64,000 bases of DNA from a virus. Both the position numbers and the translations under genes were made by a program. The stretch covers positions 65,629 through 129,628 of IMG/VR virus record IMGVR_UViG_3300032401_001514. One strand, 5' to 3'. Numbering within the stretch: position 1 is the first letter of the stretch; every line of letters begins with the position of its first letter. Shown here one piece after another: positions 15,423-62,692 of this stretch. The notes below the pieces were generated by a model. That model was given only the letters and a program-made list of their open reading frames with translations, did no database searches and had not been told where the DNA came from.

Positions 15423-18371
15423 TTATGCAGATATAAGGCCAGAAATACTAGTCGATGGCACAACCAGAATTGAATTGTTCCATCCGGCCTTTTTCAAATA
15501 TACTGTAATCTGTATCTTAGATACTAATGTCAAATATATAGGATCAACGCTCAAATCTTTAACGGTCAAGCTAAGGATGCCGTTGTTTTGGTCCATGTAT
15601 ATGCCGATGATGTCATCAACAATAATTCCATAACCATCTGTGTCATAGCCGTCCAAATTTGGAACGAATGATTGCAACGCCACTCCAAAACGAATCTTAT
15701 TCAAAAACAAATCTTCAGCTTGTACTGTTGTGCAATCTGCATATTTACATGCGGGATATCCAGCACTTGTAAATCCGTTCCCTTGATCCGCTACCAATTT
15801 ATGGAATACATCTATGCTTGATTCTTCAAAAGGCATCTGAGGAAGCTCAAGTATTATATGCTGAATTTCTATGTCAGTCTTATACATATCCCCGTTAGGC
15901 CTGATTATATGTCCTGAACCAATGATTAAATTATCTGGCACAAAGAAGTCATTTCTACCAGGATCACACGTTGGACTAATAGTACCCCTATCTTCGCATT
16001 CAAAAGTTAATGGTATAGAACAAGATGCTGGTTTTATCTCGTTTCTATAAGTAAATGTTTGCGGAACTATTCTGGCATGTGAATCAACTCCTAATTGATA
16101 GTCTTGCCAGAATGGCTGAGGTTGAATTTCAAATGTAACTCCTGGGAATGGAACGATATTAAATGTTCCAGGGTCAGCGCCATCTATACTCGGAACCACA
16201 ATATATCCGTCATATATTATTTCAGTCGTGCTTAATGATGACGTGGGAACTACATTGTCAGATTGATAACCATCTAATCTAATATATCCATCGCCACAAT
16301 CATAATAACCATCATAACGACCAATGCTTTGCTGCACTTGCAAACAAAGATGATTAAATGAATATCCAACAGTAAAAGAATTAATTGATCTATCTACGAA
16401 GCTTTGAATCAAATTAACGTCATCAGCAGAAACATATCCGTCACCATCAACATCCGCTCTTAATAATTCTAAAGTGCTAATATAGCCATCTACAATTTTT
16501 TGTTGTGTAGACGATAAAGCTAATCCCTCTCCAATAAGTTCTGCCGCTCTGGTTACATCCAAGTTATTAATTTCGCCGTCTCCATTAACATCTCCGTAAC
16601 CATCTGTACAAAGTGTTGCTCTAAAAATTCTATAATTATATGCTCTGCAATCTACGCTTGGAAATAATTTGCTACCAATTAAATTCAGTGACAAAAGATC
16701 TGCATCAGGATTTACTATACAGTAAGTATCTCCTTTAGCTAAACCTGGAAGGCTTTGAGTCTTAATTAATAATGTATTGTTCTTCGGGTTTGAATCAACA
16801 ACGCAACCTATAACTAGCGGCTCCGAAATTTGCTGCAAATCTTCTAATGAAGCCTCAGTAACGAAACTAAATGAAGGAATCGTTTGTTGACGCGAAAATA
16901 CATTATTGCCAGTTCTCTCATCTTGTACTGTTAAACTTTCTTGGAAAGTGGCCTGTAGCACACCTATATTGTTGACATTCTCGCCAGTTGTAGAAAATGA
17001 GAAGTATCTTTCTTGATTATCAATGGTAGCGCCAGTTGCTGGGTCTACTGTTGTTTTGGCGAAAGATATACCGTTTCCAGCATCATAACCTTGGCCATCA
17101 GCTATTTTGGAGGCGTCTGTCCAAATTTGGAACCACATATCATCTTCTGGAACATCGGTCCAAATGCCAGTGAATATTGTTAATCTAGAATCTGGTGTCC
17201 AGTCATTTCCTGTCTCAGCAAAAATAGAGCCGACACTTGCGTCACCAGAACGTCTAAATGTAACGGTGTAATAATGATCAGGATTTATTCCGCCTGGTTT
17301 TGATATCGAAGTATTATTAAATACAAAATCAACCGGCTGAGCCACGTCATTAAGAACATAGCCAAGGTTTGATAATTCAGTAATGCTAACACTAAATTCT
17401 ACTAACGGGTTTGGCTCAGGCTCAAATTCAATAGTTAGATCGGGGATGATATCAGTTGGGCAATCTACCGTGGTTTGCAACTTATGAATGCTAATAATTA
17501 AATTGCCTGACCAATCAAATCGATGCTCAATAGATGCCGCATCATCTCGTCCGACGCCTAACAACAATGTTATTTTTTGAATATTATTTGTGGTTGTTTT
17601 AAACTTTTGTCCATAACGTGTGACTACATCGCCGGCCTCAATAGAGCGAACTTGTTTTCCAGTTATATTTATATTTAATGCATCAACGCTATATTCCGGC
17701 CCTATTGCATCTTGTAACGTAGCGTATAATTCTGAAATGCCAGGTTGTGAAGGAATTACAATTCCACTAGTTTTGAAATCCCTAAAGAAAATATCAGGCA
17801 TCACATCCTGAGATGTCATAATTACATCGCGTGATAACTGAAAAGAAGCTACTTCGCTAATGTATACTTCGCCGCCTTGATTTCTGGAACAATTATTATT
17901 GCCTTTAAAATCATTAAATAATACAGTTAACAATCTTTTATAATGATTGGCAGTTACTTGCTTTTCATTTTTATGAAACGTCAGACGATCCATAATTAAG
18001 GTGCCATCAAATGACAATCCAATAATAAGAATTTTTACTTGTAATCTACCAAAAACACTAGAGCCTGTTAGCTCAACTTCTAATTGGTTGCCAAGATTGG
18101 TATCACTTGGTTGTGCATGAAAATCTAATCCAGTTCCATCAAAATTATTAGCTGCCAATAACGCCGCTTGTTCCGCTGTTAATTCGGTGGTATCAAAAAG
18201 TACACGTTGTTCTGGGGATTCTAAAAGAACGCCAGAGCCAAAATGATTTTGAATAATGGACGCATCTATTTGATTGTTATTGGTTTGCTCAGTGTCTAGA
18301 TCGGCTTTATCTACACGTTGAGCATCACTCCATTTGTTTTCTATTACTGATACTTGGTTTCGTATGGTCAT
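15423..18371 (-). CDS. Large virion structural protein with a dockerin-like Ca-binding duplicated motif; DGY-rich
   Basis: 982 aa, last gene of the baseplate run. GDVNGDGEINNLD...ADVDGDGYVSADD at about 16595-16395; 9 DGY. Confidence 0.6.
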   Translation of the reverse strand: MTIRNQVSVIENKWSDAQRVDKADLDTEQTNNNQIDASIIQNHFGSGVLLESPEQRVLFDTTELTAEQAALLAANNFDGTGLDFHAQPSDTNLGNQLEVELTGSSVFGRLQVKILIIGLSFDGTLIMDRLTFHKNEKQVTANHYKRLLTVLFNDFKGNNNCSRNQGGEVYISEVASFQLSRDVIMTSQDVMPDIFFRDFKTSGIVIPSQPGISELYATLQDAIGPEYSVDALNINITGKQVRSIEAGDVVTRYGQKFKTTTNNIQKITLLLGVGRDDAASIEHRFDWSGNLIISIHKLQTTVDCPTDIIPDLTIEFEPEPNPLVEFSVSITELSNLGYVLNDVAQPVDFVFNNTSISKPGGINPDHYYTVTFRRSGDASVGSIFAETGNDWTPDSRLTIFTGIWTDVPEDDMWFQIWTDASKIADGQGYDAGNGISFAKTTVDPATGATIDNQERYFSFSTTGENVNNIGVLQATFQESLTVQDERTGNNVFSRQQTIPSFSFVTEASLEDLQQISEPLVIGCVVDSNPKNNTLLIKTQSLPGLAKGDTYCIVNPDADLLSLNLIGSKLFPSVDCRAYNYRIFRATLCTDGYGDVNGDGEINNLDVTRAAELIGEGLALSSTQQKIVDGYISTLELLRADVDGDGYVSADDVNLIQSFVDRSINSFTVGYSFNHLCLQVQQSIGRYDGYYDCGDGYIRLDGYQSDNVVPTSSLSTTEIIYDGYIVVPSIDGADPGTFNIVPFPGVTFEIQPQPFWQDYQLGVDSHARIVPQTFTYRNEIKPASCSIPLTFECEDRGTISPTCDPGRNDFFVPDNLIIGSGHIIRPNGDMYKTDIEIQHIILELPQMPFEESSIDVFHKLVADQGNGFTSAGYPACKYADCTTVQAEDLFLNKIRFGVALQSFVPNLDGYDTDGYGIIVDDIIGIYMDQNNGILSLTVKDLSVDPIYLTLVSKIQITVYLKKAGWNNSILVVPSTSISGLISA

Positions 18372-18375: not shown

Positions 18376-21300
18376 TCACGGTATTAAATTAATTGTTACT
18401 TTAGATTGAGCAGGTTTAAGCGCGGATATAAGCTCTCTAAGCACTTGTTCTATTTTAGCGTTGCTTAAAACTATGCCAAAAGAGTCTAAGATATTTAGAG
18501 TAAAGTTGAAAATGCCGAATTTATCATCTCTTAATATAGCGAAGTCTGTATTCTTTGTAACAAGCTGGTCAAAATCTAATAGAAATGTAGTAAACGCATC
18601 TGTAATAGCCGGCCTAGCTTGAGAAATATTCGAAGTATAATTAACATCTTTTGGTTGTCCAGCAATAATAACTGGAGAAAGAGCTATATCACTTATTTTT
18701 AAATTATCGAATCTAGCCTGTGCTGGCTGCGCTCCCAGATAATCAGAGCCTATAAAAAATTGATTTATAGGATCTGTAAAGTTCATATCAGCAACAATAC
18801 GGCTTATGCCGCCAGAACGCCCCATTCCGAAAACAGCCCCGCTTCCAAATATTAAACCAGCACCAAACATAACAGTGGCATTTTCTTCTCCATCTACGAA
18901 CATTCTTAATTCGTCTTTATTATCAGATCTATTGAATTTATATGTTACACGAATTCGGTGCCACGTATCTCTTTGCCAGAATATAGATTGGCTAATTTTG
19001 TAATCAATATCTCCGATTCTTACGTCAAAATTTATAAAACCGTTTTTATCTTTAAATATAGTAATTCTGTTTCCAACAAGGCCTGACGTAATATAAATTA
19101 TTTTTACAGGAGTTTGTTGATAAGGGAGAGCAATTCCTAATTTAATAGTTTGAAAGTCATCCTCAATTCTACCACCAGCAAAGTAATTAACGCCAGAATT
19201 ATCAACATCAGTTTGTAATCTAACGGCCAATACTGTTGAAATTCTTCCTGCTGTTTTAACACTGCCGCTGGTTATGCTAGTTACTTTTTCAACTGATGAA
19301 GAGGCTGCGTCAAAATAAACCCTTACATTTGGATCATTGAATGTATCAAATTTTGGACTAACCCAAAATTCAATAGTGCCCTCAGAGGTAGTTGGAAGAT
19401 ATCCGTTGTTATCATATATTAATGGTTTATCCATAATAACAACGCTTTGATTAAAAGTTTCATTAACACTATCACTTGATTGAATAAATTCTTTAGTTGA
19501 GCTAATATAATAATCTGAGTCATTATTAAATGGAAATTCATCAAGGTGCAATAACATTAAAGTTTTACTGTTTTTATCAAATGGTCTTAAAGATGTGAAA
19601 TCACTTGTGATAGAATCTTGCCCTTCCGGTAAAATCTCACCAACGCGCACATCCGTTAACATATTTGATAGAATCCTAACCTCGTCTATAATAGCTTTAG
19701 CTTGTTCTCCACCATTAAAATTAGAACCTACATACGCTGTTAAATCATTTGTTGGAGCAAAAGGAATTTCTAGATGAGCAGAATAATCCAACTCATACAC
19801 TCCTTGCTTTAATGGATAATCAGTATCTACGGATCCTGCCAATTCAAATGTAAAGAATCCATTTTGGAACCCACTTCGTCCCAAACTGATATCAAATATA
19901 TCATAAATGCCATCAGTAAACGCTGAGCCGGGAGCTGGAGATATTGTAAGCGTGTGTTCATCCGGTCTGGAAACTATATTATATGTTCCAACAACAAGTG
20001 CCGGAGATGATATTGCTAATTTATTCCCTATGTCAGAATCTAAAAATAGCCTCTGTGAATCTGTTATAACAGCGCTGCCATCACCCTGCAATGTTATACC
20101 GTGTGCAGTCTTAAAACTGAATCTAACAATAGGGAAATTGTTGTTACCATCAGGCTCGGTAATAGAATAAGCTTCTTTAATTTCTATAGATGCTGAATTT
20201 TTTACTGGATTAAAAACTTCCATTACTGCTGTTGCGGAAGTAATAGTCTTAAATTTCTCAACACCAATTATTGCCCCAGACGCAGTGAATGTAAAGATTT
20301 CAAATACAGCCCCGCTAAAGGTTGTTCCAAATACCGTCACAGTAGCAGGCGTAGAGAAGTTTATATTACCACCAGTCATATAAACAGAAAGTCTGCGGCC
20401 CTCTGTAGAATTTGATGTTTGTGTAGGAGCGAGTCCAGCCGCTGTATATGTATTGCCAAAAATTACTGCATTACCAGGGCCAATTACAACAGAAGGCAAC
20501 AATATAGCGGTTATCTTTGCTTCATCCAAATTGATTGGTGGAGGCAATTGAGATCTAAGGATGCTTGTTGTATCACCCCATACAAATTGTCTGCTTCTGG
20601 CCCTTCTATGATTTAGCCCAAGTGTTCTAATAACAATCTGATCGCCAGCTATTGCGTTGCCCAATAATGTTAAAACGTCTTGATTATAAAGATTTTTCCC
20701 AATTGAATACGAAGGAATATCTGCTCGCAACCCTGGTATTTCTGTTTCGACTAAACCGCTAATAATAGATACAGCAATATTTGAAGATAAATTTATTTCA
20801 CTTGAAACTACTACTGAATATGGATTTACAGAGAATCTTACGTTAGACAATGTGGCAGGCATTGGTAAATTCAAAGTTAATGCATAACCATTAACAGCTG
20901 TTATATTATATGACCCAAATCCTATTTCAATAATATCTATCGTATCTCCTGGTAAAATACCGGAGGTCTGAAAATTAACGCTATCAGAAAATACTATTGA
21001 AGAACCATTTGTTACATTTAAATCTTTGTTTGTTATTGTTGTTAACGGCACAGTTCCAGCAACAATTTCAGCGCTAATAGTTCTAAATCTATCCGTAGAT
21101 GTAGCTATAGGTCTGCCGCCATACCTTAATAAATTCGGAACCTCAAAACCGTCAATAAATAAATGCATTTCATCTCTGCGCTCAACAGAACTTAATCTCC
21201 AAGAAGCCGCAATATGATGTTTTTGTCCAGACTTCCAGTCAGAAATATCAGAGCTTATCTTAAAAGAACTTATTGGATTTTCAGGAATTGTCGGATTCCC

Positions 21301-24300
21301 TTTGCTAAATGTCTGGAAATTTAAATATCCTTTTCCGTCTTTGAATATAGAGAACCTATTTGTAGTATTAGTTTTAGCAAAATCAAAAATATAATGTTTA
21401 TCATCAGACATAAATATAATGCCATCAAATGAGAATCCAGGCACATATCCATCCGTATATCCATCATATCCATCAGCGTAACCATCAGCGTCATTAGAAT
21501 TTAAATTAAAAGTAAATTGAATTTTGTTATTTAAAGTTCTTAATACATCGTCTGGTTCGCCAAGATTTTGTTTAAAACCAACATCATAGAATTCGCCAGA
21601 AGTTAGTATCTCGCCTCTATATGCATATCCGTCTACTATTGGAACATCTTTTGCTAAAATTTCCCAATGTTTTGTATCTGTGTTATAAAAAATGAACACA
21701 CCAGTTTTTGTAAAAATAGCTGATGGCAATCCTAATGGACTTAATTCATCGTTACGATTAATTGAGAAAGAATTATTGCTGTCATAAATTGGATTAAAAC
21801 TTGACGCACCAATAAAAACGCTGCTTGCTGGTAATACATATCCATCCTTTGTTAAGGATATGGTTAATGTAGAGTCATTATCTAAACCGTCCCATTCAGG
21901 AATGACCCATGCTTCCCAAGTGCCTTCTTCAAGTTTAAAATTGCTTGAAATCGGGAACGTAATAGTTTCGTCTGGATTTGCAATCAACGCTCCGTTATCG
22001 AATTTACCAGGCAACAAAGCAATATCACCAGTCCAATCAACGGCATTTTGAAATAGATGACTGATGCCTAAAGACCATATATCAAAAACAGATTCTATAA
22101 TTTCCGGGTCAACATGCGTGATACGTGATACCAACTCTGTAATAGCCGGAATTGTTGGACCTTTTGTGAATGATTGAAGTGCCGCCTGTAAAGCATCACG
22201 ATAATTCTCTCGTGGTAATGATGTATCAAACGTATTTAAAATTGGCAGATCAACTAATGTTCCAAAGTTTTTTAACAATGAATCTCTAACTGCTCCAATA
22301 GTATATGTAACGAAATACTCTTCCCCTTCGTTCAATGCTCCGCTTTCTCTAAAATCTAATACGTTATCACCATGTTCATAACTAACCAATATTTCATCAG
22401 CCAAATATGTATAATTAACGAAATAATCTCCTCTGTTGTAGTCAACAACTGGAGTGGCCGCCCCATTCAATTTCATACGATAAATAACCAATACCGAGTC
22501 CCCTGGAACCGGAGATCCAAGACCAGATAGATTAATTGTGTATCCAGAAAATGTTCCAGAAGAATCCCATAGTTCGACATTATCAGTAGTACGAATAACA
22601 TTGGTAACATCAGAAAGTTCAGCCCCAGTAGAAATAAACGATACAACAATTGATGGACCAGTAATAACTGTATTTAATTCTTTCTTTTCAACTCCAGTAG
22701 AATCCAATGTAATAACGTTGCCAGAAGATGTTGAACCTTCCGCAAAATCGGTTATATCAGCGTGGTTATTTAAATCAAATGCATCGAATATATGACGAAC
22801 ACGTTTGATATCATTCGTAACAGTAATTTGACCATTATCAACTATGTATGGCAAAGAAACGTCATCATTTAAAAAACGCTCATCAGAAATATCAAATTTA
22901 TTTGGCGTGATAATCCCTTCTCCAAACGAAGAGAAATCCATGATCTTGCTAGAGCCGGCTACAGCATTAATACTATAAAACAATTCTGACACACTAATGA
23001 CGTGTGGATTTTCAGGACTAATTGTTGGCTTGGCATAATTTACAGTTCCTACATTTAAAACTTGAGATGAAGTTACGCCAACATAAATTAACCCATTTCT
23101 ATAATCTATTTGATATTGTCCAACGAGCAACCTGTCCGTATTGGTGGCTACATCAAAAATTTGAGCATCATAATATAATTCTTTTTCAAATATATCAATT
23201 CTGCTAAAAGACACACTTGAGTTGAAACTTGATCCTATTGCATCATCTGTGGTTGATATAATTTTATTATTAACAAGCGGTAAACGATATATTCTGGTAC
23301 TAAGAATATTAATAAATTCTAAATCAACTAATAATGTTTCGTTAGATACTTCTGTAAATTTTATAGACTCTTGTAATTTATCAATAATTCTCGGAGATGT
23401 ATTGGCTGTAAAATATACGGTATTATCAGAGAATCTATTTAAGGCATATACCTCACCACTTGTTTCATTAAATATTCTAAATACATTGGTGATTGGAGAG
23501 TTTTTAACTAGAAATGAGGCTGTGCTTGTTAATCTATTTTCTATACGCTCGTCTAATTCTTCTTGATGAATTTGTGATTTAAAATCAACTCCAGGTACCA
23601 ATGTCTGTTCAAAATCAAATGACACTTTAACAGATTGGCTAATCAATTCTCTTAATGGATTAGCAACTAAATCAGAGCCGGTTGATGTAGAATTATGTAT
23701 TGGATCAGTATCTAAATCGAATGTATAATCAATCCTGTTACTAAATGATTTTCTATAATTATATGTAGCTCCAGGAGGAAATACACCAGAACCATCATTT
23801 GTAGTTGCTCCATAAACATATACTTCGCCTTTAGAATAATCAACAGAATAATCCCCAGTAACCCTTGGAAGCCCTTCTAACCTAAATGGTATCTCATGTT
23901 TAAAGGCTGGATGAACGCTAGAGAATGGTGGATTAGCTTGAGGGTCTAAAAATTCAATACCATCAGACGTAGGGATTTGATCAGAGTCTGTCACAACTGG
24001 TGCGTGTTTTAATATAAATCGGTTTAATATTGGAGGAACAGCCTCTCGGGTTGCCTCCAACACCTGTGACACTAATACAGAATTTGGATCAATAATTCTG
24101 CCTAAAGACTTGTATTCATAATCAACAACTAATGTATCTCCAGACTGAGGTACAGGTAAATCGGGATTATCTAAAACCGCCGAATTTAAATTAAATTGAT
24201 TGTCTTGCAACGTAAATAATGCTGATGCAACATTTGTATCATAATTAGGATTTTTAATTTGATACCCAAGAGTAGAAAGGTCATATTCGAAACTGCCACC

Positions 24301-25080
24301 AGATTCAAAATATAAAATTGCTTTATTAAGTTTTGTTACCGGTCCATGTTTAACAGTTAATATTAAATTATCAAATGTGCCAGCAATAGTTCCAGCAAAC
24401 AATTTCTCTTTAATTACATCTGTTCTTAACAAAGTAATAGGGTCTTTAGGAAAGCTGGTATAACTAAAACTTGTACTTAAATTAGTAGCAGTTCTATTTC
24501 TTCCAACGCGATCTACTTGATACGCGCCCTCTTCATTTAATCTATCATACGGTCCCAAACCTCTAGTTTTTTTCTCATCCTGTATTAAAATTTCTAAATA
24601 ATTATCACTTAATGATTGACCAATATCATGTAAAGCTTTGCCGATATATTTAGATTGTAAATTAACAATATCTCTAGCAATGGTATTATTATCAAGACTT
24701 AATATGCTTTGTTTATCTAAATAACTTAATAAAATATCTCTTGTTATATCTGCTGGATCTTCCGGCCCCAATAATAAAGAAACGTTTGTATTGCCGTCTT
24801 CAAGAAGAAATGATTGACCATTTTGTGATTTAAATCTGCTGGTTTGTGAAGATTTGAAAGTAACAAAATATGCAGCGTTCGGCGTCATTGGTCGAACGAT
24901 AACATTCATAATATCATTTGATATTGTTACTTTTAAAACTTCAGCATCAGGAACGCCAGGAACGTTTGATACAACGGTGACATTCGTTGCATTTAACAAC
25001 GAATCTAATGTGCCAGTAAATTGAGCACGAATAAGCTGGCTATCCGATGCTTTTATTCTGACCAATCTTAAGTTAGCCAT
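18376..25080 (-). CDS. Giant baseplate wedge protein (P2 gpI / T4 gp7-like) with LamG-like domains
   Basis: 2234 aa following the J-like gene. gpI-like core NFGTLVDLP...ENYRDAL...GPTIPAI and C-terminal KPAQSKV. LamG-type motifs GTWEAWVIPEW/KHHIAASW and GTIEFWVSP/WHRIRVTY. Confidence 0.7.
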   Translation of the reverse strand: MANLRLVRIKASDSQLIRAQFTGTLDSLLNATNVTVVSNVPGVPDAEVLKVTISNDIMNVIVRPMTPNAAYFVTFKSSQTSRFKSQNGQSFLLEDGNTNVSLLLGPEDPADITRDILLSYLDKQSILSLDNNTIARDIVNLQSKYIGKALHDIGQSLSDNYLEILIQDEKKTRGLGPYDRLNEEGAYQVDRVGRNRTATNLSTSFSYTSFPKDPITLLRTDVIKEKLFAGTIAGTFDNLILTVKHGPVTKLNKAILYFESGGSFEYDLSTLGYQIKNPNYDTNVASALFTLQDNQFNLNSAVLDNPDLPVPQSGDTLVVDYEYKSLGRIIDPNSVLVSQVLEATREAVPPILNRFILKHAPVVTDSDQIPTSDGIEFLDPQANPPFSSVHPAFKHEIPFRLEGLPRVTGDYSVDYSKGEVYVYGATTNDGSGVFPPGATYNYRKSFSNRIDYTFDLDTDPIHNSTSTGSDLVANPLRELISQSVKVSFDFEQTLVPGVDFKSQIHQEELDERIENRLTSTASFLVKNSPITNVFRIFNETSGEVYALNRFSDNTVYFTANTSPRIIDKLQESIKFTEVSNETLLVDLEFINILSTRIYRLPLVNNKIISTTDDAIGSSFNSSVSFSRIDIFEKELYYDAQIFDVATNTDRLLVGQYQIDYRNGLIYVGVTSSQVLNVGTVNYAKPTISPENPHVISVSELFYSINAVAGSSKIMDFSSFGEGIITPNKFDISDERFLNDDVSLPYIVDNGQITVTNDIKRVRHIFDAFDLNNHADITDFAEGSTSSGNVITLDSTGVEKKELNTVITGPSIVVSFISTGAELSDVTNVIRTTDNVELWDSSGTFSGYTINLSGLGSPVPGDSVLVIYRMKLNGAATPVVDYNRGDYFVNYTYLADEILVSYEHGDNVLDFRESGALNEGEEYFVTYTIGAVRDSLLKNFGTLVDLPILNTFDTSLPRENYRDALQAALQSFTKGPTIPAITELVSRITHVDPEIIESVFDIWSLGISHLFQNAVDWTGDIALLPGKFDNGALIANPDETITFPISSNFKLEEGTWEAWVIPEWDGLDNDSTLTISLTKDGYVLPASSVFIGASSFNPIYDSNNSFSINRNDELSPLGLPSAIFTKTGVFIFYNTDTKHWEILAKDVPIVDGYAYRGEILTSGEFYDVGFKQNLGEPDDVLRTLNNKIQFTFNLNSNDADGYADGYDGYTDGYVPGFSFDGIIFMSDDKHYIFDFAKTNTTNRFSIFKDGKGYLNFQTFSKGNPTIPENPISSFKISSDISDWKSGQKHHIAASWRLSSVERRDEMHLFIDGFEVPNLLRYGGRPIATSTDRFRTISAEIVAGTVPLTTITNKDLNVTNGSSIVFSDSVNFQTSGILPGDTIDIIEIGFGSYNITAVNGYALTLNLPMPATLSNVRFSVNPYSVVVSSEINLSSNIAVSIISGLVETEIPGLRADIPSYSIGKNLYNQDVLTLLGNAIAGDQIVIRTLGLNHRRARSRQFVWGDTTSILRSQLPPPINLDEAKITAILLPSVVIGPGNAVIFGNTYTAAGLAPTQTSNSTEGRRLSVYMTGGNINFSTPATVTVFGTTFSGAVFEIFTFTASGAIIGVEKFKTITSATAVMEVFNPVKNSASIEIKEAYSITEPDGNNNFPIVRFSFKTAHGITLQGDGSAVITDSQRLFLDSDIGNKLAISSPALVVGTYNIVSRPDEHTLTISPAPGSAFTDGIYDIFDISLGRSGFQNGFFTFELAGSVDTDYPLKQGVYELDYSAHLEIPFAPTNDLTAYVGSNFNGGEQAKAIIDEVRILSNMLTDVRVGEILPEGQDSITSDFTSLRPFDKNSKTLMLLHLDEFPFNNDSDYYISSTKEFIQSSDSVNETFNQSVVIMDKPLIYDNNGYLPTTSEGTIEFWVSPKFDTFNDPNVRVYFDAASSSVEKVTSITSGSVKTAGRISTVLAVRLQTDVDNSGVNYFAGGRIEDDFQTIKLGIALPYQQTPVKIIYITSGLVGNRITIFKDKNGFINFDVRIGDIDYKISQSIFWQRDTWHRIRVTYKFNRSDNKDELRMFVDGEENATVMFGAGLIFGSGAVFGMGRSGGISRIVADMNFTDPINQFFIGSDYLGAQPAQARFDNLKISDIALSPVIIAGQPKDVNYTSNISQARPAITDAFTTFLLDFDQLVTKNTDFAILRDDKFGIFNFTLNILDSFGIVLSNAKIEQVLRELISALKPAQSKVTINLIP

Positions 25081-40788: not shown

Positions 40789-40816
40789 AATTATTCCTTA
40801 ATTATTAACAGAGTCA

Positions 40817-47334: not shown

Positions 47335-48129
47335 TTAAAGCCCTTGTAATGCGTCTAAAAGCTCCAATGACGTAACAATACTTAAATTTGGAGCAATAGT
47401 TGGTGGAGCAGTTTGTAAATTACCAATGTCCACACAAATATTAATAATATCAAGTATATTATCCACCGGAATCTCTCTGCTCCATTCAGTTCTAATGTCC
47501 AAATTTATGGTCTGTTTGAACAATTTATCGTTTCTATCTTCACCTTCAGATGGTGATCCAACACTAACATTCGGCTTTATTGATACACCGGCTTTATACA
47601 TTTCATCCCAGCGTATATCTACAAATAATAATTGAACCAATTCTACCAAATCGTCTCTATCACGAAGACCACGAGTTAATACATCAATAGTAATCGATCC
47701 TTCCCATGCGCCAGATAATAACAAATGAGAAGGTGTACTGAATACCTTTTCGTTACCATATCCATCAACGAACTTTGTGACAGTATTTATTACAACACCT
47801 TTGTTTCTACTCATAGAAATTGGCACATAACGAAAAGCTCCACCACGAACAACAAGCGCGGGATAATAAATTCCATCATAACGAAAAGCTTCACCTATCC
47901 ATAACCTTGTTGTTGCATCATCATTTAATCCGGCATTCGGATCCAAATCAGTATGATCAGTAGTTTTCGCAAATCCCCACTCATCTCTTACATAATGATA
48001 ATAACTATCATCTGCAAAAAACTCCTTTAGTGTAGCAATTACCATATCTTTAGAATATCGCAACATACTATTCTGGACTATATTGTGAATAGCATATAAA
48101 TCAGTAGTTTGATTAAATCCTACGGCCAT
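47335..48129 (-). CDS. Tail terminator/completion protein (gp15-like)
   Basis: 264 aa upstream of the sheath; YPALVVRGG and WEGSITIDVLTRGLRDRDDLVE. Confidence 0.65.
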   Translation of the reverse strand: MAVGFNQTTDLYAIHNIVQNSMLRYSKDMVIATLKEFFADDSYYHYVRDEWGFAKTTDHTDLDPNAGLNDDATTRLWIGEAFRYDGIYYPALVVRGGAFRYVPISMSRNKGVVINTVTKFVDGYGNEKVFSTPSHLLLSGAWEGSITIDVLTRGLRDRDDLVELVQLLFVDIRWDEMYKAGVSIKPNVSVGSPSEGEDRNDKLFKQTINLDIRTEWSREIPVDNILDIINICVDIGNLQTAPPTIAPNLSIVTSLELLDALQGL

Positions 48130-48149: not shown

Positions 48150-49073
48150 CTATCTAACTCTATGAGCCCCATCTAATATGTTTTGTTTAGCCGATAGTGG
48201 TCTAAGATTTTTTAATGCCCAACATTCAATAAATTCAGAGTCTTTCATGCTTGAATAATTGAATTTTGATACAGATTTTATATGATCAATGTTCCACGCC
48301 CAAGTTAATACATCATTATCGTCCCATGTTTTTGAGTTATATTTACCCCAATTACTCCAATTCATCCATGGTTCAAACTGACATTCTATGTGTTGTTTTA
48401 AATCTTTCATTGAATAGCCGATATATTTTAGCATTGATTTACCACGTTTTGGATTGCCGCTATTTTTTAAAATAATCCTTATATATTGGCTAATATTTTT
48501 ATGCAATTTATATGACGGATCTTTAGCTAATCTATCTTTTCTATATTTCCTCAGAACCTCTTTTCTGTGCTTTCTGAAGCTTTCATCATATTGCAATCTT
48601 ATTTTATTTCGTTGCCACGCCTTTTTTGCTCGCGCTTTTCGCATTTCTGGGTGTGTGACCATATAATCATGACCATAATTATTTTCACATTCTCTGCATG
48701 GTCCGTACCAATATTTTCTTTCTAATTCATTAATAATTTTTATGTTTTGTATTCTATAAAACTCTTCATTCAATAATTTGTCAATTTTGCATTTACTACA
48801 TTTTTTATGTGTTCTATTAACTATAGATAATAGTTTTTCATATTTTATATACCCTCTTTCATTTTTAGTTCTTTCCATTTTCTTGATATGACGATTCTTT
48901 TGATAGTTCTTAATTTTATTTGTGTTCTTAAGATAGTATTGTTTCTTAGACTCTATTACGCATGCGTTACATTGTGTTCTGAATTTTTTAGAATCATTTC
49001 TGAAGTAAAAGTTGTCGATGTTCAAAATCTTTAATTCATCACATTTTATGCATTTTTGTATTTCCACGCTCAT
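48150..49073 (-). mobile_element. Free-standing HNH homing endonuclease gene
   Basis: 307 aa; two CxxC...CxxC Zn-ribbon repeats, a basic linker, and C-terminal WNIDHIK...CWALKNLRPL...QN. Confidence 0.8.
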
Positions 49074-52900: not shown

Positions 52901-55244
52901 TGTGCCACTTATTAGTTGCTAATAATGAAGAGCTTTCTCCTTGTAATGGCATGCGCGCTCTTTCATGACTAAATGTTTTGCCTTTATCCGTTACATAAAT
53001 TTCATGCAATCTATGATAATCAGTAGCAGTTGCTGTCGGATCTTTTACGTTAGTTAAATTGATTCCTACTGAGTCTTCAGAGAAATAAAGATTGACTGAT
53101 ATTTCTGGGCTAGTAGAAAAACTTGTTGGAAGCCCTGTTGCATGAATACCATTAATTACTATTATTAATGTGTTTCCTAATCCCGGATCACAAGACTCAA
53201 ACGTAACTTCCTTAATAATAAAACGCCCATAATCAACATCATTATATTTCGGATCAGTAAATGGCAAAGCGTTCTGAACTACAATGGTTTTGCCAGGCTT
53301 TAATCCCGCTGGTTGAAGTTCAAGATTTACACGATATGTAACCTCAACTGTGGTAACTCCAATTGGCGTTCTGTTGATAAGGGTAGCTGGCCAATAACCA
53401 TCTCTGTTTTGATCCAACGTGGCCAAATACGTTGGAGCAAATCCTTCTTTGCGAAGGCCGTTAACAACATAACTTCTATTTTTAAGAGGAACAATTACTT
53501 TTGTTGGTAATTGAGCAGCGGTTGCATCAATATATGTTATTTGATATATCGGGCTGGCCAAATCAGCACGATTAAAACCAAGTCCTAAGGCATCAAGATT
53601 CGACGTTATTGCATTACCAACAACGTTGTTAACGAATATTCCTGTGACTAAAGTACCACTGCTATTATTTCCATTAACTATTGAGAATGAAGCTCCGCTA
53701 ATTGCGTCAGCTAACATTATGCCAAAGTTGCCAGAAATATGTTCAAATGCAATAAATCTATAGTTATACCCAATTGTTCTTAAACTATCATTGGTAGCTT
53801 TAACAATTCTTTCAAGGGTATATTGACCAACGGTTGCTCCAACATTTCCTGTTACGTCAATACCAGGCAATGAAATAATCCTGTCTTGTGGATTGCCAGT
53901 TGGGTATAATTGTAAATATAAAAGATAATGTGTAGCATCTAGTTGATTAGGATCGAAGCCATTTCCTAAAGCTACTGCTCCGCTAGGATGGCCAACAATA
54001 ACGCTTCCTAATAGCCCAGAGAATAAAGATTGAGGGATAGCATTGGCAGCTGCAACAGCCATAATACCATATGTGTTGGTGTCAAATAATGGACGATCAA
54101 TACGAACATATCCATCCATATATCCATCGGTACTATCTGTATCAACAAGATTGGTATTAGCTATTCTTAATATCCATTCGCTACCAGGAGTATATTTTAT
54201 TGATTCTACTATTGATGATGCCTCCAAACCGTTTCTATAATTTATTCTTGCGATATCACCAACGCGAACTTGATTAAATTGTGAATCGAATATAAAATTA
54301 GAATTGTCTGGATGGAATGAAATTATTTCATCACCGTTATTGGTATCATCAACTGGGGCCGTACCAGGCGGTTTATGAGCCACATGTAAAGCTGCTGAAG
54401 TTGAAGGCACAACTGTCTGACCATATCCGTCTGGGTTAACGAAGGATTGCGATCTTGAGTCCTGAGGAATTCCATTCGAATGCATTGTGGCACGATGAAT
54501 GCCCATAACAGCTTTTTCAACGGCATCCAAAGCTTCTAACGCTTCCTGAACATCATTAATAGCAGTGGATATTTCTGTAAAGTTAGTTCCATCTACAGAT
54601 ATTGCCGAAGCTGGATGAGCCCCAGGACTATTAACCTGCGTGATATTCTGGTGGTAAACAAGTTCTGTGCTTATTTGATCTAATGCTTCTGCTACGGTTG
54701 TGGCAGTACGAGGAACATTGTCTTTATCAAATAGCCCGCCCCATACATAACTTAAATCACGTATATCATTTGGAACTGCATTTAAATCAATATGACTGCC
54801 TACGTGACGCAAATTACTATCTGGGCCACCACCAATATGGCTGTTTAGTTTTGTTTCTGTAGCATTAGTGAAAGCTACCAAGCTAGTTAATAATAACTGA
54901 TTTGCTATAATTAATGTATGTAAGTCAGATGTGGAATAATCTAAAGAAAGCTTATATTCTTTTATTCCTGCGCCATCGGCAACTTGATTATCAACAATTG
55001 GTAATGTAGCCAAGCCTACGCTAGTTAATGCTGAAGCTTTTATTGTACCATTTGTATTGAATGACACAGAGAGAAATTGAGCTAAAGAATCAAGTGTTCC
55101 TGCTGGATTGACGCCTAATTCGGCCTCAATGTTGAAAACCGCATCTCTTAAACTATTTATAGCTTCGCCGCCTAGTTCAGTAATATTGTCATTAATTCGC
55201 GGCAACTCATTGTCACTATCTATATCAAAGGGATAAACGCTCAT
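49905..55244 (-). CDS. Very large tail fibre/receptor-binding protein with C-terminal parallel beta-helix
   Basis: 1779 aa; N-terminal YPFDID...INSLRDAVFNIEAELG, HPASAI...VQEALEAL motifs, and Asn-rich beta-helix repeats (ISNVRIEKCTF, NCFIENN, NVIIKNNSC); 6 DGY. Confidence 0.68.
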   Translation of the reverse strand: MSVYPFDIDSDNELPRINDNITELGGEAINSLRDAVFNIEAELGVNPAGTLDSLAQFLSVSFNTNGTIKASALTSVGLATLPIVDNQVADGAGIKEYKLSLDYSTSDLHTLIIANQLLLTSLVAFTNATETKLNSHIGGGPDSNLRHVGSHIDLNAVPNDIRDLSYVWGGLFDKDNVPRTATTVAEALDQISTELVYHQNITQVNSPGAHPASAISVDGTNFTEISTAINDVQEALEALDAVEKAVMGIHRATMHSNGIPQDSRSQSFVNPDGYGQTVVPSTSAALHVAHKPPGTAPVDDTNNGDEIISFHPDNSNFIFDSQFNQVRVGDIARINYRNGLEASSIVESIKYTPGSEWILRIANTNLVDTDSTDGYMDGYVRIDRPLFDTNTYGIMAVAAANAIPQSLFSGLLGSVIVGHPSGAVALGNGFDPNQLDATHYLLYLQLYPTGNPQDRIISLPGIDVTGNVGATVGQYTLERIVKATNDSLRTIGYNYRFIAFEHISGNFGIMLADAISGASFSIVNGNNSSGTLVTGIFVNNVVGNAITSNLDALGLGFNRADLASPIYQITYIDATAAQLPTKVIVPLKNRSYVVNGLRKEGFAPTYLATLDQNRDGYWPATLINRTPIGVTTVEVTYRVNLELQPAGLKPGKTIVVQNALPFTDPKYNDVDYGRFIIKEVTFESCDPGLGNTLIIVINGIHATGLPTSFSTSPEISVNLYFSEDSVGINLTNVKDPTATATDYHRLHEIYVTDKGKTFSHERARMPLQGESSSLLATNKWHILDVSPKLRGFVNTVTLRKYIRLAIVNYAVDTGEFDGYIGNPNAINPVVDFPGILVTGKKNVPVRFYDDSGADYIELIFRDEETSPAGSPIEGNAVMSNGSQRAIDIEIFPTLSLDDEVLKLATCEVNWSPQTGTDNIEYVKDRRQQGSISELEFTQSAKDFIQSGDRHLHGNGVIRDLGFRVKSATDTRVLFFNGGVALVDGATVVVNPGGVTIPVIFNTSHSKPDIVVWAICVDKSGHFVPIIISGVQFFAQDNISGNKYYVPSVTFFELINTRKDLTLIATVQVIIASITIGAVKDARRFVTDETLNIPFTWVPAPNRKTSLGAPEVNISGHFHTLAALKTWIQQYGAFDNIVKIKGGQVIDSTFDFSDFVYPVVFEGVGQAGFVVTTKIGIILGSNISFKNIEFAYLPTGVTYITPPLRPVDNTVVVDYVNANVAGGAGCLYASGVISNVRIEKCTFISTLAVRAPFVIFNTTKGDEIDNIYICENLFQDSGNGKKSAIAIIHSNTGASLDPAKLSNCFIENNICDSDQNIVITTVPISNNIISPGITASNTFIRNNTCGNIGQIISAIDDGYGSQSITIENNSCKYIANLNSLGNYQYANGTALGTISHNMGNVIIKNNSCNWIHCTSVTTNYGILSAGTLLIDGNKIRAYDENYLIIFGANLYTVAFNYAISVQPGATADVGNTECRIINNTTDFGIFASVKYSYTMCCRTEMSSIVKSNTFKGIKDAVGESIIIYAHGLRTIITDNRLERGSNKVFYYIVSPNASNSTGLIVDNALDNFTTDDVNNTSVIFSGAHGVIIERNKNQTGTIILNPSNGIFSVGELTNGFLAGDIGALVIHYTGLIILNTIGYTESFIIYYNTTDAGAANREYVWDVSLEEILPSGVEVISSELTAFCSAITSSSSLISIVVGPGYGNGAVLGTPVIDFSGAYTPNNPVLTTANTSGLGFRTGTGLNMRYILIGNIHSTSGAQVLTAVNTALASHGGAKITYRW

Positions 55245-57341: not shown

Positions 57342-57557
57342 ATGAGCAGAAAATTTCTTACAATTGAAAATATGCACGAAATTGCAAAAATCAAAAATGG
57401 CAAATGTTTATCAACTGAATATACAAATTATGATACTAAACTTCAATTCGAATGTAAAAATAAACATGTTTGGGAGGCCTCATTCGATTCATTAAAAAGC
57501 GGACGGTGGTGCCCAAAATGTAGAGACGTTTATATTAATGCAGGGTTGATGTTGTGA
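57342..57557 (+). CDS. Small zinc-ribbon protein, possibly a truncated endonuclease remnant
   Basis: 71 aa; GKCLSTEY...FECKNKHVW...GRWCPKC. The 3' end overlaps the neck gene antisense by 28 nt. Confidence 0.55.
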   Translation: MSRKFLTIENMHEIAKIKNGKCLSTEYTNYDTKLQFECKNKHVWEASFDSLKSGRWCPKCRDVYINAGLML

Positions 57558-59161
57558 GAATGCCCTAAAACAGTCTGTATTACCCCATTTACAATAGGAT
57601 GATTGTGGGCGCCCTGTCCAACTGGTGGATTAACACTGGTGGTTTGATTTATTTGAACTAACGAAAGAATGTTTTCGTTAACAACTAAATTATGTGTATG
57701 TGGGGCTATTCCTCCAGGACCAGGCACAAACCCAATGTCAGTAGTAATAACACGAGGTATTGTTGAAGTATCACGAATCGCACGCCATTGACAAATAGGA
57801 TCTAATTTACGAATACGTTGTGCTGTAAATTTTTGTCCGCCAGAATCGCTGAACATTAATTTGTTACGAGTGACTCCTAGAATTTCGTATCTAAACTCTT
57901 CTGTTCCGTCAAGATTAAATCTGATGATGAAGTCGCGATTCTTCACAGCGGGTATAACTAATGTCCAACAATCCGGTATCAACTCGGATTCCAACCCAAC
58001 ATCCTGCATTTTCAGATCTTCTTTGGTTGGGCCGAATCTAACCATAATCCTACCATCACTTCTACGAGGATTAAAATATTGATCATAACCGGTAACAAAA
58101 CCTGTGCCAAAGCATACTGGGCAACGCGGCTCAGGATGCTCTCTATTAATTTCATAGCAGCTACAAACAACACCTTTCCAAAGTCTACGAACCAAAACGA
58201 CAGGTTCACCAGTAAGGTCAAGTAACATCTCTTCTCGTCTATCGCTTTGTTGTGCCAGGCTCATATTTCTAATTTGATTTCCGACGCCTTCATAACCATC
58301 GGCACAGAAGTTCTCTCCGCCAATATATGAATCCAAACACATCCCATTGAATAAATCAGCAGGATTTGTTCTGTGCCATCCTACATAATCATACGCCGGA
58401 AAATCCACTCTGTCTGCGTCACTAGCTTCTAAATTAGTGGTTAATAAATCTTGTAATCTTTCTTTATATCCATCAGCATTTGTTCTAGCAAAATTAGGAT
58501 CATTAAATGTGCTCTGTTCCTGATTAACAAAATTGTTTCCATCCTCGAACCCAATAAAGAAATGAGCCAATGGATTATCATAATATTTTATTCCGTCATA
58601 TCCATCAACCGTATGTAATCGAGGCACAGTTCCTAAAAACCCTCTTTCTCCAACAATTAAATTATTGGCAGGAATGTCTTTAGAAATATACCTAATTAAT
58701 TCGCTTCCAATAACTACAACTCCGTATGCTGGAAATATATTAATATCATCTATTGGAACTAACATATCTGAGTCAGTAATATCACTAAGAAGCATGCTTT
58801 CTGGATAAATTTTTAAACCAGTATTATAACCATCACCATCTTGAAGCAGATTTGGATTAAACCATAATAAATCATATTCCATTGCTCTTACGGCGAAATA
58901 GAACATATCACCAGGAGTAAAATCTTGTATATAAGCAGATCTTCCAGTTATATTTAATGAAACAAACTTTGGGCCTTCTGCAAATATAGACTCTCTTCTT
59001 GTGGAGAAATAAATATTGTAAGCTATTTGTAAATTGTTATTATCAGGAAATGCTTGTTCCCAAAATATAGACATAGTATAACCGTCACCCAATGAATTGA
59101 CGGTATTAAGCCCTCGTTTCACTGAAGGTAAATATTGTGGAATATACTGTACACAAACCAT
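57530..59161 (-). CDS. Neck/head-closure protein with N-terminal FN3-like extension and C-terminal HxH repeats
   Basis: 543 aa; core GEPVVLVRR...CSC...CPVCFGTGFVTGY...RDFII...RYEI; N-terminal WEQAFP...YNIYF...YFAVRA; 5 DGY. Confidence 0.65.
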   Translation of the reverse strand: MVCVQYIPQYLPSVKRGLNTVNSLGDGYTMSIFWEQAFPDNNNLQIAYNIYFSTRRESIFAEGPKFVSLNITGRSAYIQDFTPGDMFYFAVRAMEYDLLWFNPNLLQDGDGYNTGLKIYPESMLLSDITDSDMLVPIDDINIFPAYGVVVIGSELIRYISKDIPANNLIVGERGFLGTVPRLHTVDGYDGIKYYDNPLAHFFIGFEDGNNFVNQEQSTFNDPNFARTNADGYKERLQDLLTTNLEASDADRVDFPAYDYVGWHRTNPADLFNGMCLDSYIGGENFCADGYEGVGNQIRNMSLAQQSDRREEMLLDLTGEPVVLVRRLWKGVVCSCYEINREHPEPRCPVCFGTGFVTGYDQYFNPRRSDGRIMVRFGPTKEDLKMQDVGLESELIPDCWTLVIPAVKNRDFIIRFNLDGTEEFRYEILGVTRNKLMFSDSGGQKFTAQRIRKLDPICQWRAIRDTSTIPRVITTDIGFVPGPGGIAPHTHNLVVNENILSLVQINQTTSVNPPVGQGAHNHPIVNGVIQTVLGHSHNINPALI

Positions 59162-59949: not shown

Positions 59950-59974
59950 AATATAATACAGTTTTATTAGCGCA

Positions 59975-60588: not shown

Positions 60589-60596
60589 ATTTCTTC

Positions 60597-60803: not shown

Positions 60804-60808
60804 TTAAT

Positions 60809-62692
60809 TTACAAAGAAAGATTAAGAACGTGCCATTGAAGACCGTCACCGTCATCAGCATCAAAATAACATAATTTAGCATAATTTAAATTTGCAGGTA
60901 TAGCAGTCTCAAGAACAATAATTGGAACCGCATCTGGTCTTAATAACGTAATTGAATATGTCATGGATAAATTAATACACTCAATTATTGATCCAAGAGC
61001 CGCCCCAGTATTACTTATTGTATAATTACGCGGAGTTGTAATTGTTAAGTCACGAGCAATAAGTATATCAGTTGTTGTTATTAAATAAGTCGAATTCGTA
61101 TTTGTTCCGTATGTAACTCTATATTTTATTCTGCCAGCTGATGAAAGAATAACTTGAGAAGAAACGCTAATATCACCAGCAGGAGCGGCAATAGAGATAT
61201 CACCTGATGTACTTTGGATATCAACATCATTAACACCTGCTGTAATAGAAATTCCACTACCATATATTTGCGCAAGATCAGTGTCGCTAGAAAGAAGCAA
61301 ACTATTTTCGGAGCTAACGCTCATGATATTATCTGATCTAATAAAGAAAAAATCATTGCCTGTAATAGAAATGTCATCACCGGCAGATACAGTTATATCA
61401 TTTGATGATGATATGACGGCACTATTAGCTCCCAACAATAATTGACCTGTAGATCCATTTAAAACTATAAGTCCGGAATTATTGCTCTGTATTCCAACAG
61501 CATTATTACCAGCACTAATTGTCAAATCACTTTTGTTATTAAATAAATTATTATTTGTACTTTCTTCCCATATGCCAGATCCGTTATTATTAACAAGCTG
61601 CTCGAATACTGATGGAACCCTTATTGTTCCAGTGTTGTTTGCGATTGAAATAATTGGCGTTCCAGCAGTAAATGTAACAAGAGCGAATATATAACTATTT
61701 CCGTCAGTTCCTATTAAATTATTACCTTTAATAGAAACTGTCATTGTTCCAGTTATAAGTACAAAACAATTCTTGGTTGCGTTCGTACTGTCTGCCAACG
61801 CTTCCGTTCCAAATGCCCGCCCATTACATCCATTTATTATCAATTTATCATTTATATTTGCCGGATCATATTTGACAATAGACGTAAATCCATCAAATGT
61901 ACAATTTTCAAATATTAACGTTGATTCATTAGCGGTAGTATTGGTAAACCCAGCAGCATACAAAGTTTTTGTTCTTCCAAAACCGGGACCAGCACCAAGT
62001 GTTCCCATTTTGCCCAAAAAAGCAGTATGAGTACAAATTACATATGATCCGGTTTGACATCTAATCATTGGTACAGTTGTCATGCACGCAGCGCCAGAAT
62101 TAACATATCCGTCTAAATTATCCGCAAGAACAATATTAAAAAACTGGCTCTTATCCAACGGGTATTTTGCCAAAATGCCATCAGAACTTATTTGCGGCCT
62201 ATCTGTGGCGCTATTCATTATGAACATCGGCTGCTCAATTACTTCGCCCTGAAGAATAGTGCCTCCCATTTCGCCCATAATAACAAACCCTGACGGAACA
62301 GTAACCGTTGTTTTTAAACGATAGGTTCCTGCCTTTACTAAAATCACTCCGCCATTCGCTAATCTAGGATGAATAAATGCATCATTAAAAGCACTTGATA
62401 CGTCTTCCCCACTTCCAACAACGAAATCAGCATGCTGGGTATCATACCCATCACCAATTGTTATAAATCCTTGGCCCGTTGTATTTAAGAATGTGGTAAT
62501 TTTTTCTAAAGTTGCCTGAACTGTTGCAGCATTGAATATACCGTTATCAATACTTATAGCCGGATTCATGTCCGTTTGATCGGAAGTGTGCCGCCACCCA
62601 TTTCCTTGTGCGTGAGCTTTAAAATCTTGTAAATGAGTGGCTGCGAAACCACCTTCACGAAGCCTTCCTGATCCTTTAAATGGTACGCTCAT
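60809..62692 (-). CDS. Fibre/tailspike-like protein with pectin-lyase-type beta-helix
   Basis: 627 aa; AFNDAF...GGVILVKAGTYRL beta-helix cap, VQATLEKI fibre motif, repetitive C-terminal ISITAG strands; 2 DGY. Confidence 0.68.
   Translation of the reverse strand: MSVPFKGSGRLREGGFAATHLQDFKAHAQGNGWRHTSDQTDMNPAISIDNGIFNAATVQATLEKITTFLNTTGQGFITIGDGYDTQHADFVVGSGEDVSSAFNDAFIHPRLANGGVILVKAGTYRLKTTVTVPSGFVIMGEMGGTILQGEVIEQPMFIMNSATDRPQISSDGILAKYPLDKSQFFNIVLADNLDGYVNSGAACMTTVPMIRCQTGSYVICTHTAFLGKMGTLGAGPGFGRTKTLYAAGFTNTTANESTLIFENCTFDGFTSIVKYDPANINDKLIINGCNGRAFGTEALADSTNATKNCFVLITGTMTVSIKGNNLIGTDGNSYIFALVTFTAGTPIISIANNTGTIRVPSVFEQLVNNNGSGIWEESTNNNLFNNKSDLTISAGNNAVGIQSNNSGLIVLNGSTGQLLLGANSAVISSSNDITVSAGDDISITGNDFFFIRSDNIMSVSSENSLLLSSDTDLAQIYGSGISITAGVNDVDIQSTSGDISIAAPAGDISVSSQVILSSAGRIKYRVTYGTNTNSTYLITTTDILIARDLTITTPRNYTISNTGAALGSIIECINLSMTYSITLLRPDAVPIIVLETAIPANLNYAKLCYFDADDGDGLQWHVLNLSL

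Follow-up and report, generated by a model that had tools for sequence, protein, structure and literature searches.

Asp-Gly-Tyr as a short linear motif on tail proteins of phage-G-related megaphages, and its possible reading by a phage-encoded glycosylation system

Phage glycosyltransferases are known to decorate the virion of the phage that encodes them, and in mycobacteriophages, as PMC12619734 describes for the work of Freeman et al. (2023), the glycans are at the C-termini of capsid and tail-tube proteins. Tyrosine O-glycosylation has been described for the S-layer proteins of Paenibacillus alvei, Thermoanaerobacter and Thermoanaerobacterium, in which long, variable glycans are attached via beta-Glc-Tyr or beta-Gal-Tyr linkages; the glycan grows on a lipid carrier and, after export, a membrane oligosaccharyltransferase attaches it en bloc to two to four sites per protein that follow no consensus (PMC2943079). 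Here we describe a stretch of 64,000 nucleotides (nt) from an uncultured phage (IMG/VR record IMGVR_UViG_3300032401_001514, positions 65,629 to 129,628; hereafter the window), in which the tripeptide Asp-Gly-Tyr (DGY) recurs in sheath, baseplate, fibre and neck proteins that are encoded next to an island of glycosyltransferase genes. No mention of a "DGY motif" was found in the literature searched.

From position 15423 onward, the open reading frames (ORFs) of the window contain 37 DGY tripeptides, 36 of them in nine carrier proteins and one in a LAGLIDADG endonuclease (Table 1). Amino acid composition predicts 2.35 and a first-order model 5.9 (Poisson p of 4e-31 and 8e-18, respectively), and 5000 within-protein shuffles gave a mean of 2.34 and a maximum of 10. 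A sequence-only reading of this stretch had already pointed to the excess; its counts for the nine carriers all agree exactly with the ORF translations; the copy in the 288-aa endonuclease had been overlooked. DGY is the top tripeptide of these ORFs, ahead by 25 orders of magnitude in p-value of a runner-up with p of about 1e-4. The close variants that the same reading had named as controls are all at background, with 5 DGF against 3.7 expected, no DGW against 0.55, 4 NGY against 2.4 and 1 EGY against 1.7, and so are DGH, SGY and DAY. The five other orderings of the three residues, among them YGD (1 against 2.35), are at or near background after allowing for the overlaps in tandem DGYDGY. Tyr comes after 35% of the DG dipeptides, compared with a share of 3.1% among all residues.

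The excess had been attributed to selection on protein rather than on DNA, and the reading-frame data bear this out. Among 49 occurrences of the DNA word GAYGGNTAY, 43 are in frame 0, none in frame 1, three in frame 2 and three antisense, and the codons chosen for DGY are those of the genome's usual codon usage. With the word being frame-specific, selection acts on the protein, and a DNA-level signal was rejected as the cause of the excess. The earlier list of proteins without DGY is also correct: the gp25-like protein, the 562-aa, a second 702-aa, the 1678-aa and the 323-, 717-, 114-, 224- and 205-aa proteins (4677 aa) contain none; over the 5059 aa of the 17 island ORFs, where 0.85 would be expected, there is again none. 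Tube, hub and tape-measure-type proteins lack the motif.

The turnover of the motif can be followed best in the tail sheath. When 82 sheaths were aligned, DGY was found in 24 columns, all of them at reference positions 59-479 and none in the core (480-819), in agreement with the earlier impression that the sites cluster in accessory domains. One to five sites are present in 81/82 sheaths, and the maximum-likelihood tree of the sheaths requires at least 52 gains or losses of DGY, above every control tripeptide. Alternatives in the polymorphic columns are DAN, AGT, NNL, NGT and DGV, not DGF or NGY; as judged from this alignment, the three residues appear and vanish as one unit. Seven other orthologue alignments revealed a mixture of conserved and lineage-specific sites. 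The extreme case among the carriers is the family of the 982-aa baseplate-distal protein, where each of ten DGY positions recurs in 61-119 of 121 sequences, and where the 120 homologues of the window's protein carry 5-12 DGY each (mean 8.8, with 0.22 expected). In the 264-aa protein adjoining the sheath gene, DGY 122 is retained in 6/6 orthologues and one DGY is present in 64/71. For the 702-aa baseplate-region protein, site 448 is shared by 4/5 orthologues and site 625 by 3/5, and site 641 is unique; the only site of the baseplate J-like protein was not found in orthologues. The 34 near-full-length orthologues of the 1779-aa fibre-type protein have 2-11 DGY each, with most positions not in common. 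DGY 1199-1210 of the 2234-aa giant protein form a tandem array with four copies in 15 residues, encoded by near-identical GATGGATAT-like repeat units; orthologues have zero to three copies, and both observations suggest expansion by slippage. Together, the counts and alignments establish DGY as a short linear motif that appears to be read stereospecifically, being order-dependent, demanding Tyr and not Phe as well as Asp and not Asn or Glu, and keeping its number through turnover.

Little else is shared around the motif. The flanks of 183 DGY sites have no extended consensus, with Gly roughly doubled at +1, hydrophobic residues favoured at -1, Asp mildly increased at -4 (19 vs 11), -7 and +4 to +7, and no notable excess of Asp at -2. 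The AlphaFold2 (AF2) model of the sheath, with a predicted local distance difference test score (pLDDT) of 84.3, confirmed the sheath fold and places all nine residues of the three sites in coil, between strands of the beta-sandwich insertion domain. Such insertion domains face outward in contractile sheaths. In the AF2 model of the 982-aa protein (pLDDT 82.4), whose fold weakly matches that of phi812 baseplate chains, 8/9 sites fall in loops or at the termini of helices or strands, two of them in a low-confidence loop, and the ninth, at residue 700, is within a short turn. The mapping on predicted structures that the sequence-only reading had called for accordingly finds loops or element ends in both models, with exposure judged from secondary structure and domain position. 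The DGY tag is real and undescribed, and by the same judgement it sits on loops predicted to be exposed.

Cultured phages yielded no close match to the window, whereas IMG/VR holds a large clade of relatives, none of them cultured, with sheaths 44-67% identical and contigs up to 459 kb. In 63 related loci, each taken as the sheath gene +/- 10 kb and spanning guanine-plus-cytosine (GC) contents of 30-46%, 496 DGY were counted where 62 are expected, and in most loci no other tripeptide ranks as high; NGY was counted 55 times against 77 expected. Pooled DGF amounts to 182 against 83 (2.2-fold), a co-enrichment that is mostly explained by one invariant sheath-core column contributing 97 of the 182. 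In the tail, baseplate, fibre and neck proteins of the clade, DGY is enriched 8-40 times over chance. An effect of composition or GC was rejected, given the enrichment at GC 30-46% in the clade and its absence from low-GC phage G relatives, and paralogous repeat domains were dismissed as the cause in the clade, since no extended motif is common to the flanks. For the complete relative G006 (458,729 bp), the counts are 69 DGY against 6.2 expected in the structural modules, 2 against 1.4 in the glycan island of 26 kb and 13 against 16 in the other 112,000 residues. The motif is carried by the insertion domains of the sheath, a protein near the sheath, proteins of the neck region and the baseplate periphery, fibres and a few small proteins of the head region. 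The claim that DGY marks outer virion proteins only goes too far: the major capsid protein of G006 has zero DGY, one hit in the window is a homing-endonuclease motif, and non-virion proteins contain single DGYs at the background rate.

In a complete relative, the major capsid protein is 52% identical to its counterpart in Bacillus phage G, and through this kinship the window can be assigned to a phage-G-related megaphage as a fragment of its genome; the parent phage, like its clade, is a relative of phage G of roughly 400-460 kb. Two further observations were made on DGY-bearing proteins within the wider set of genomes. A second module, found in G004 (L026-L032) and at 358229-367685 of G006, encodes giant glycine-rich proteins (17-19% Gly; GGG 109 vs 21 in G004) with 6 and 10 DGY sites in G004 and G006, respectively, in repeats of the form G-rich loop, DGY and then IIFE. 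Besides, a 383-kb megaphage contig binned with a Chitinophagales metagenome-assembled genome (L216, JAIXLO010000160.1) carries the giant protein, a 1073-aa protein and a GT4-like gene in the same architecture, with 14 DGY against 1.3 expected; the bin label may be a hint at the host or a contamination.

The glycosyltransferase island starts 39 nt beyond the last baseplate-region gene. Its first product, a 362-aa GT4-like enzyme of the GT-B type, scores just below the Pfam cut-offs itself, while its homologues are listed with PF00534, PF13439 and PF13692, and its similarity to solved GT4 structures is weak (7mi0, E 1e-5). Within the EX7E pair of its C-terminal domain, E253 is invariant and E261 nearly so in 73 sequences. 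Among 929 homologues, the best 120 (the window's own protein excluded) are 54-85% identical, and the conservation of the enzyme equals or exceeds that of the sheath. The genes proximal to the baseplate are conserved, while for the mid-island part at 419-6460 almost no orthologues exist in four relatives; a variable outer island is expected if a conserved linkage carries a variable glycan. In its layout of a conserved core and a variable outer part, the island resembles an O-antigen locus. No polytopic membrane proteins were found among the island proteins, and in five complete genomes PF02397 (Bac_transf phosphoglycosyltransferase) was present in 0/5 and PF04932 (Wzy_C-type ligase) gave no match above cut-off. 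A soluble island without a Wzy_C or Bac_transf enzyme therefore points to a glycan that is built on a soluble acceptor in the cytoplasm. PDB and NCBIfam searches with the three conserved glycosyltransferases (the GT4-like enzyme and two GT2 enzymes) returned generic glycosyltransferase matches only, and none of the homologues from cells of various phyla, 22-30% identical to the GT4-like enzyme, has DGY-rich neighbours. The island is conserved, soluble and adjoins the baseplate genes.

The GT4-like gene was detected in 5/5 complete clade genomes, in G001, G003 and G004, in L216 and in 19/29 further contigs. All long relatives share it along with the two GT2 genes, and in the clade genomes seen to extend that far the three genes close the baseplate operon. 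The ten contigs without a match are fragments: G021 stops short of the region, and the other nine have lengths of 35-62 kb, their reach into the region not having been checked individually. No loss of the gene within the clade was found among them. In contrast, ten outgroup genomes and contigs, among them phage G, five of its uncultured relatives and three phages at a greater distance, show neither the GT4-like gene nor DGY enrichment; the gene was absent from the four genomes and four phage-G-like contigs searched, and other glycosyltransferases were screened in phage G alone, with no GT2 above cut-off. DGY counts are 35 against 21.9 expected for the whole phage G genome and 3 against 3.6 for its tail module, 5 against 5.3 for five uncultured phage-G-like loci (6 against 6.6 including phage G's own locus), 17 against 11.7 for Tunturi_5, 5 against 5.6 for Rctr197k, 24 against 18.5 for LR745208 and 2 against 3.0 for Eggerthella phage LE2-3. 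The 49 kb scanned of the T4 structural region have 10 against 2.8, three of them in Seg endonucleases and 6 in virion proteins, and the fibres of phage G have 14 against 2.2, an excess that comes from one repeated paralogous domain. The sequence-only reading had regarded equal enrichment in relatives without the island as fatal to its proposal; the lack of enrichment in these outgroups, which have no GT4-like gene, is in its favour. With regard to phage G itself (NC_023719), gp420 and gp423-427 at 316783-347675 (L161) are giant proteins with repeated domains, one with the motif NGRHTDGYWYVRG in six copies and another with LVDGYLVK, and the most enriched tripeptides of its genome are CPI and PIC (37 vs 3).

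The source contig is 129,628 bp in length and the window is its second half, with nearly all genes on the minus strand (Table 1). Above the island follows a contractile-tail module with baseplate J, gp25-like, giant wedge and fibre proteins, tape-measure-type proteins, tube and sheath, and the last block, at high coordinates, comprises neck-region genes and homing endonucleases. Most DGY proteins stayed unnamed in PHROGs and Pfam searches; a Laminin_G_3 match was obtained for residues 2003-2090 of the 2234-aa protein, and the 543-aa neck-region protein is a distant relative of phage G gp175. Genes of homing-endonuclease type are interspersed among the tail and neck genes. Over the whole contig (G000), mostly upstream of the window, TSG (45 vs 13.4 expected) and GHS (21 vs 4.1) are enriched, and GTH and GHT are enriched too in its relatives; these words may belong to His-containing fibre repeats. 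In G002 (L033-L035) the major capsid gene appears in two pieces, 38704-39492 and 40662-40889, with a gap of about 1.2 kb that may be an intron or a homing-endonuclease insertion.

Table 1. Features of the window, with positions counted from its first nucleotide; DGY sites are given by residue number.
Feature	Position (nt)	Strand	DGY	Sites and remarks
Glycan-building island	2-15383	-		continues upstream of the window
Variable outer island	2..11691	-		GT11, GT2+GT6 fusion, further GT2, DegT-type aminotransferase, epimerase, two methyltransferases, several unknown proteins
GT2-type glycosyltransferase, 275 aa	11678-12505	-		conserved in the clade along with the GT4-like gene
GT2-type glycosyltransferase, 244 aa	12675-13409	-		conserved in the clade along with the GT4-like gene
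GT4-like (GT-B) glycosyltransferase, 362 aa	14295..15383	-		first gene after the baseplate genes; candidate DGY reader
982-aa baseplate-distal protein	15423..18371	-	9	590 (nt 16596-16604), 628 (16482-16490), 644 (16434-16442), 687 (16305-16313), 694 (16284-16292), 700 (16266-16274), 721 (16203-16211), 907 (15645-15653), 912 (15630-15638)
2234-aa baseplate/wedge-type giant protein	18376..25080	-	6	1079, 1150, 1199, 1203, 1206, 1210
Tandem DGY array in the 2234-aa protein	21445-21486			1199-1210
Baseplate J-like protein, 1079 aa	25083..28322	-	1	647, outside the Baseplate_J domain
702-aa baseplate-region protein	30463..32571	-	3	448, 625, 641
Tail sheath, 819 aa	44756..47215	-	3	173, 180, 197; beta-sandwich insertion domain
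264-aa protein adjoining the sheath gene	47335..48129	-	1	122; terminator-type by position
Homing-endonuclease-type gene, HNH/EndoVII-like	48150-49073			
1779-aa fibre-type protein	49905..55244	-	6	272, 373, 377, 615, 817, 1356
543-aa neck-region virion protein	57530..59161	-	5	26, 110, 186, 230, 288
627-aa protein with DUF2345 (spike/VgrG-type) region	60809..62692	-	2	81, 194
LAGLIDADG endonuclease, 288 aa	62689-63555		1	belongs to that family's own motif

We tentatively consider it plausible, and the most likely role of the motif, that the DGY site is read by the phage's own cytoplasmic glycosylation system. DGY would then be under selection as a short linear motif on exposed loops of the sheath insertion domains, the baseplate periphery, the fibres and the neck. 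The GT4-like retaining glycosyltransferase, perhaps with the two GT2 enzymes, would recognise Asp-Gly-Tyr in a turn, and the first sugar would be placed on the tyrosine hydroxyl by the conserved enzyme or enzymes. The variable island enzymes (GT11, GT6, more GT2, aminotransferase and methyltransferases) would extend a strain-specific glycan, and the outcome would be a sugar coat over the tail exterior. In this phage, GT11 and GT6 might contribute a histo-blood-group-like Fuc/GalNAc cap to the glycan. Put in its most specific form, with DGY as the sequon of a cytoplasmic Tyr O-glycosyltransferase system whose GT4-like enzyme starts strain-variable glycans on exposed-loop tyrosines while the sites drift, the proposal is possible, if doubtful. 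The sequence-only reading had likewise taken DGY for a sequon of the adjacent island, and the D-G-Y specificity, the fixed order, the loop positions and the adjoining soluble glycosyltransferases speak for it; the co-inheritance amounts to one event, and we infer the modification itself, along with the candidate enzyme as reader, the action of the island on virion proteins and Tyr as the acceptor.

Several points weigh against glycosylation of DGY. We know of no protein glycosyltransferase with a D-G-Y sequon. The co-inheritance of motif and enzyme is weak evidence because it reflects a single phylogenetic split, and the lower count outside the virion proteins of G006 (13 vs 16) is not a significant avoidance. 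The capsid protein (in G006) and the tail tube, both glycosylated in mycobacteriophages, are without DGY here, therefore any glycosylation would have to target other proteins. The ten near-invariant positions of the 982-aa family would fit a structural role just as well. The known bacterial Tyr O-glycosylation has no consensus and proceeds by en bloc transfer outside the cytoplasm (PMC2943079). Moreover, the island could act on DNA or on another soluble acceptor, phage glycosyltransferases that hypermodify DNA being cited in PMC12619734.

The order dependence, the residue specificity, the all-or-none replacement, the constant number and the loop positions are equally the signatures of an unmodified docking or adhesion motif, whose partner might be a protein decorating or cementing the virion, an assembly factor, or a glycan or polymer of the host surface, with the many copies on the tail giving multivalent weak binding. 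No new enzymology would be needed, and sugar-binding sites often pair Asp with an aromatic side chain. However, a lone tripeptide is rarely a binding site, the flanks offer no shared extension and no candidate partner was identified; in addition, docking leaves unexplained why the clade boundary coincides with the gain of conserved glycosyltransferase genes. We consider docking unlikely, with an appreciable chance of being right.

Improbable, in our view, is a purely structural turn in beta-rich accessory domains, in which Asx and Gly make the turn and Tyr caps or latches the next strand. Most sites do lie at loop-to-strand or loop-to-helix boundaries, and many of the column alternatives retain D/N-G (DGT, DGV, NGT), suggesting that the turn was there first. 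The almost invariant positions of the 982-aa family would find an explanation, and so would the mild excess in T4 virion proteins, whose 6 DGY stand beside the roughly 2.8 expected for the whole 49-kb region. Such a turn should nevertheless tolerate Phe or Trp, yet DGF and DGW remain at background and Tyr is replaced by Thr, Asn, Val, Ala or Glu. Enrichment is also absent from related phages whose tail proteins are homologous and beta-rich and whose GC content is similar, and recurrent gains at new positions, the tandem array and insertions are hard to explain by constraints of the fold.

A different covalent change, such as phosphorylation, sulfation, nucleotidylation, oxidation or cross-linking of Tyr, or isoaspartate formation at Asp-Gly, seems quite improbable. 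The strict need for both Tyr and Asp-Gly fits chemistry on either residue, and the enzyme might be an unrecognised one of the phage, most genes in these 400-kb genomes being without known function, or one of the host. On the other hand, no conserved sulfotransferase or Fic enzyme was found in five complete genomes, a negative that is weak evidence because two enzyme families were tested, and it is glycosyltransferases, and no other candidate enzyme, that are linked to the structural operon.

A degenerate calcium-binding turn had been among the early suggestions; taken as one of the DxDxDG, EF-hand or dockerin type, it fits the dockerin sites only. Residues 592-656 of the 982-aa protein match Pfam Dockerin_1, and DGY 590 and 644 are inside dockerin-type, EF-hand-like calcium loops with Tyr at G+1, residue 644 being read in the context D-V-D-G-D-G-Y; the mild rise of Asp around the motif would agree with this. 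In EF-hand-type loops, the residue at G+1 is usually taken to bind calcium through its backbone, leaving the side chain free. Against these 2/37 sites in a dockerin match stand the remainder, for only a handful of the 37 have Asp at both -2 and -4, no DxDxDG pattern emerges over the 183 sites, and calcium loops do not require Tyr after Gly, so that we hold this explanation to be very improbable. The dockerin-type double calcium-binding module is in its own right unusual for a phage tail protein. Chance, composition, a DNA-level signal or repeated paralogous domains are a practically negligible explanation, for although the apparent sixfold excess in the phage G fibres does stem from a repeated domain with a longer shared motif ending in DGYWYVRG, here the flanks share no motif, the DNA word is frame-specific, the shuffles never exceeded 10 against 37 and the 63 loci cover GC 30-46%.

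If glycosylation of DGY holds true, Tyr O-glycosylation would have its first defined sequon, and the reader of the motif would be the first soluble protein-tyrosine glycosyltransferase besides glycogenin. It would also provide the first evidence of sugar-coated tails in huge phages, the tail exterior being covered throughout a clade of 400-kb phages that is abundant and found worldwide, with consequences for adsorption, stability and escape from recognition by hosts or grazers, and it would supply a three-residue tag for site-specific glycoengineering. Even if no glycosyltransferase reads it, the most enriched virion-protein word in hundreds of uncultured megaphages calls for an explanation.

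Neither the mycobacteriophage nor the S-layer system matches the DGY pattern. With mycobacteriophages, as described in PMC12619734, the locus shares phage-encoded glycosyltransferases linked to structural genes, and glycosylation is thought there to shield the particle; they differ in having few glycosyltransferases and C-terminal sites, whereas here the island extends over at least 22 kb, and the candidate sites lie internally, on loops of the sheath, baseplate, fibre and neck proteins, with a candidate acceptor Tyr in a fixed tripeptide. With the S-layer type, the present system would have in common a sugar O-linked to Tyr of prokaryotic surface proteins. It differs in having no Wzy_C-type ligase or phosphoglycosyltransferase, soluble island proteins and a strict tripeptide as candidate site. 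Short sequons are familiar from N-X-S/T, from the bacterial D/E-X-N-X-S/T and from D-(S/T)-(A/I/L/V/M/T) in the O-glycosylation of Bacteroidota; as in these, where three to five residues define the site, DGY is short, fixed, order-dependent and 8-40 times enriched. The acceptor in the known sequons is Asn, Ser or Thr, whereas DGY would use Tyr, in the cytoplasm and with soluble glycosyltransferases. Its turnover has the same pattern as that of viral envelope proteins like gp120 of human immunodeficiency virus, where glycosylation sites shift between lineages while their number is kept. Cytoplasmic GT-B protein glycosyltransferases, namely GtfA/GtfB of serine-rich-repeat adhesins, HMW1C, EarP and TibC, act on Ser/Thr, Asn or Arg, other acceptor residues than the one proposed for the 362-aa enzyme with its weak similarity to solved GT4 structures; what they would share with it is a soluble GT-B enzyme that acts on a surface protein, nascent or folded, before export or assembly, followed by further glycosyltransferases that extend the glycan.

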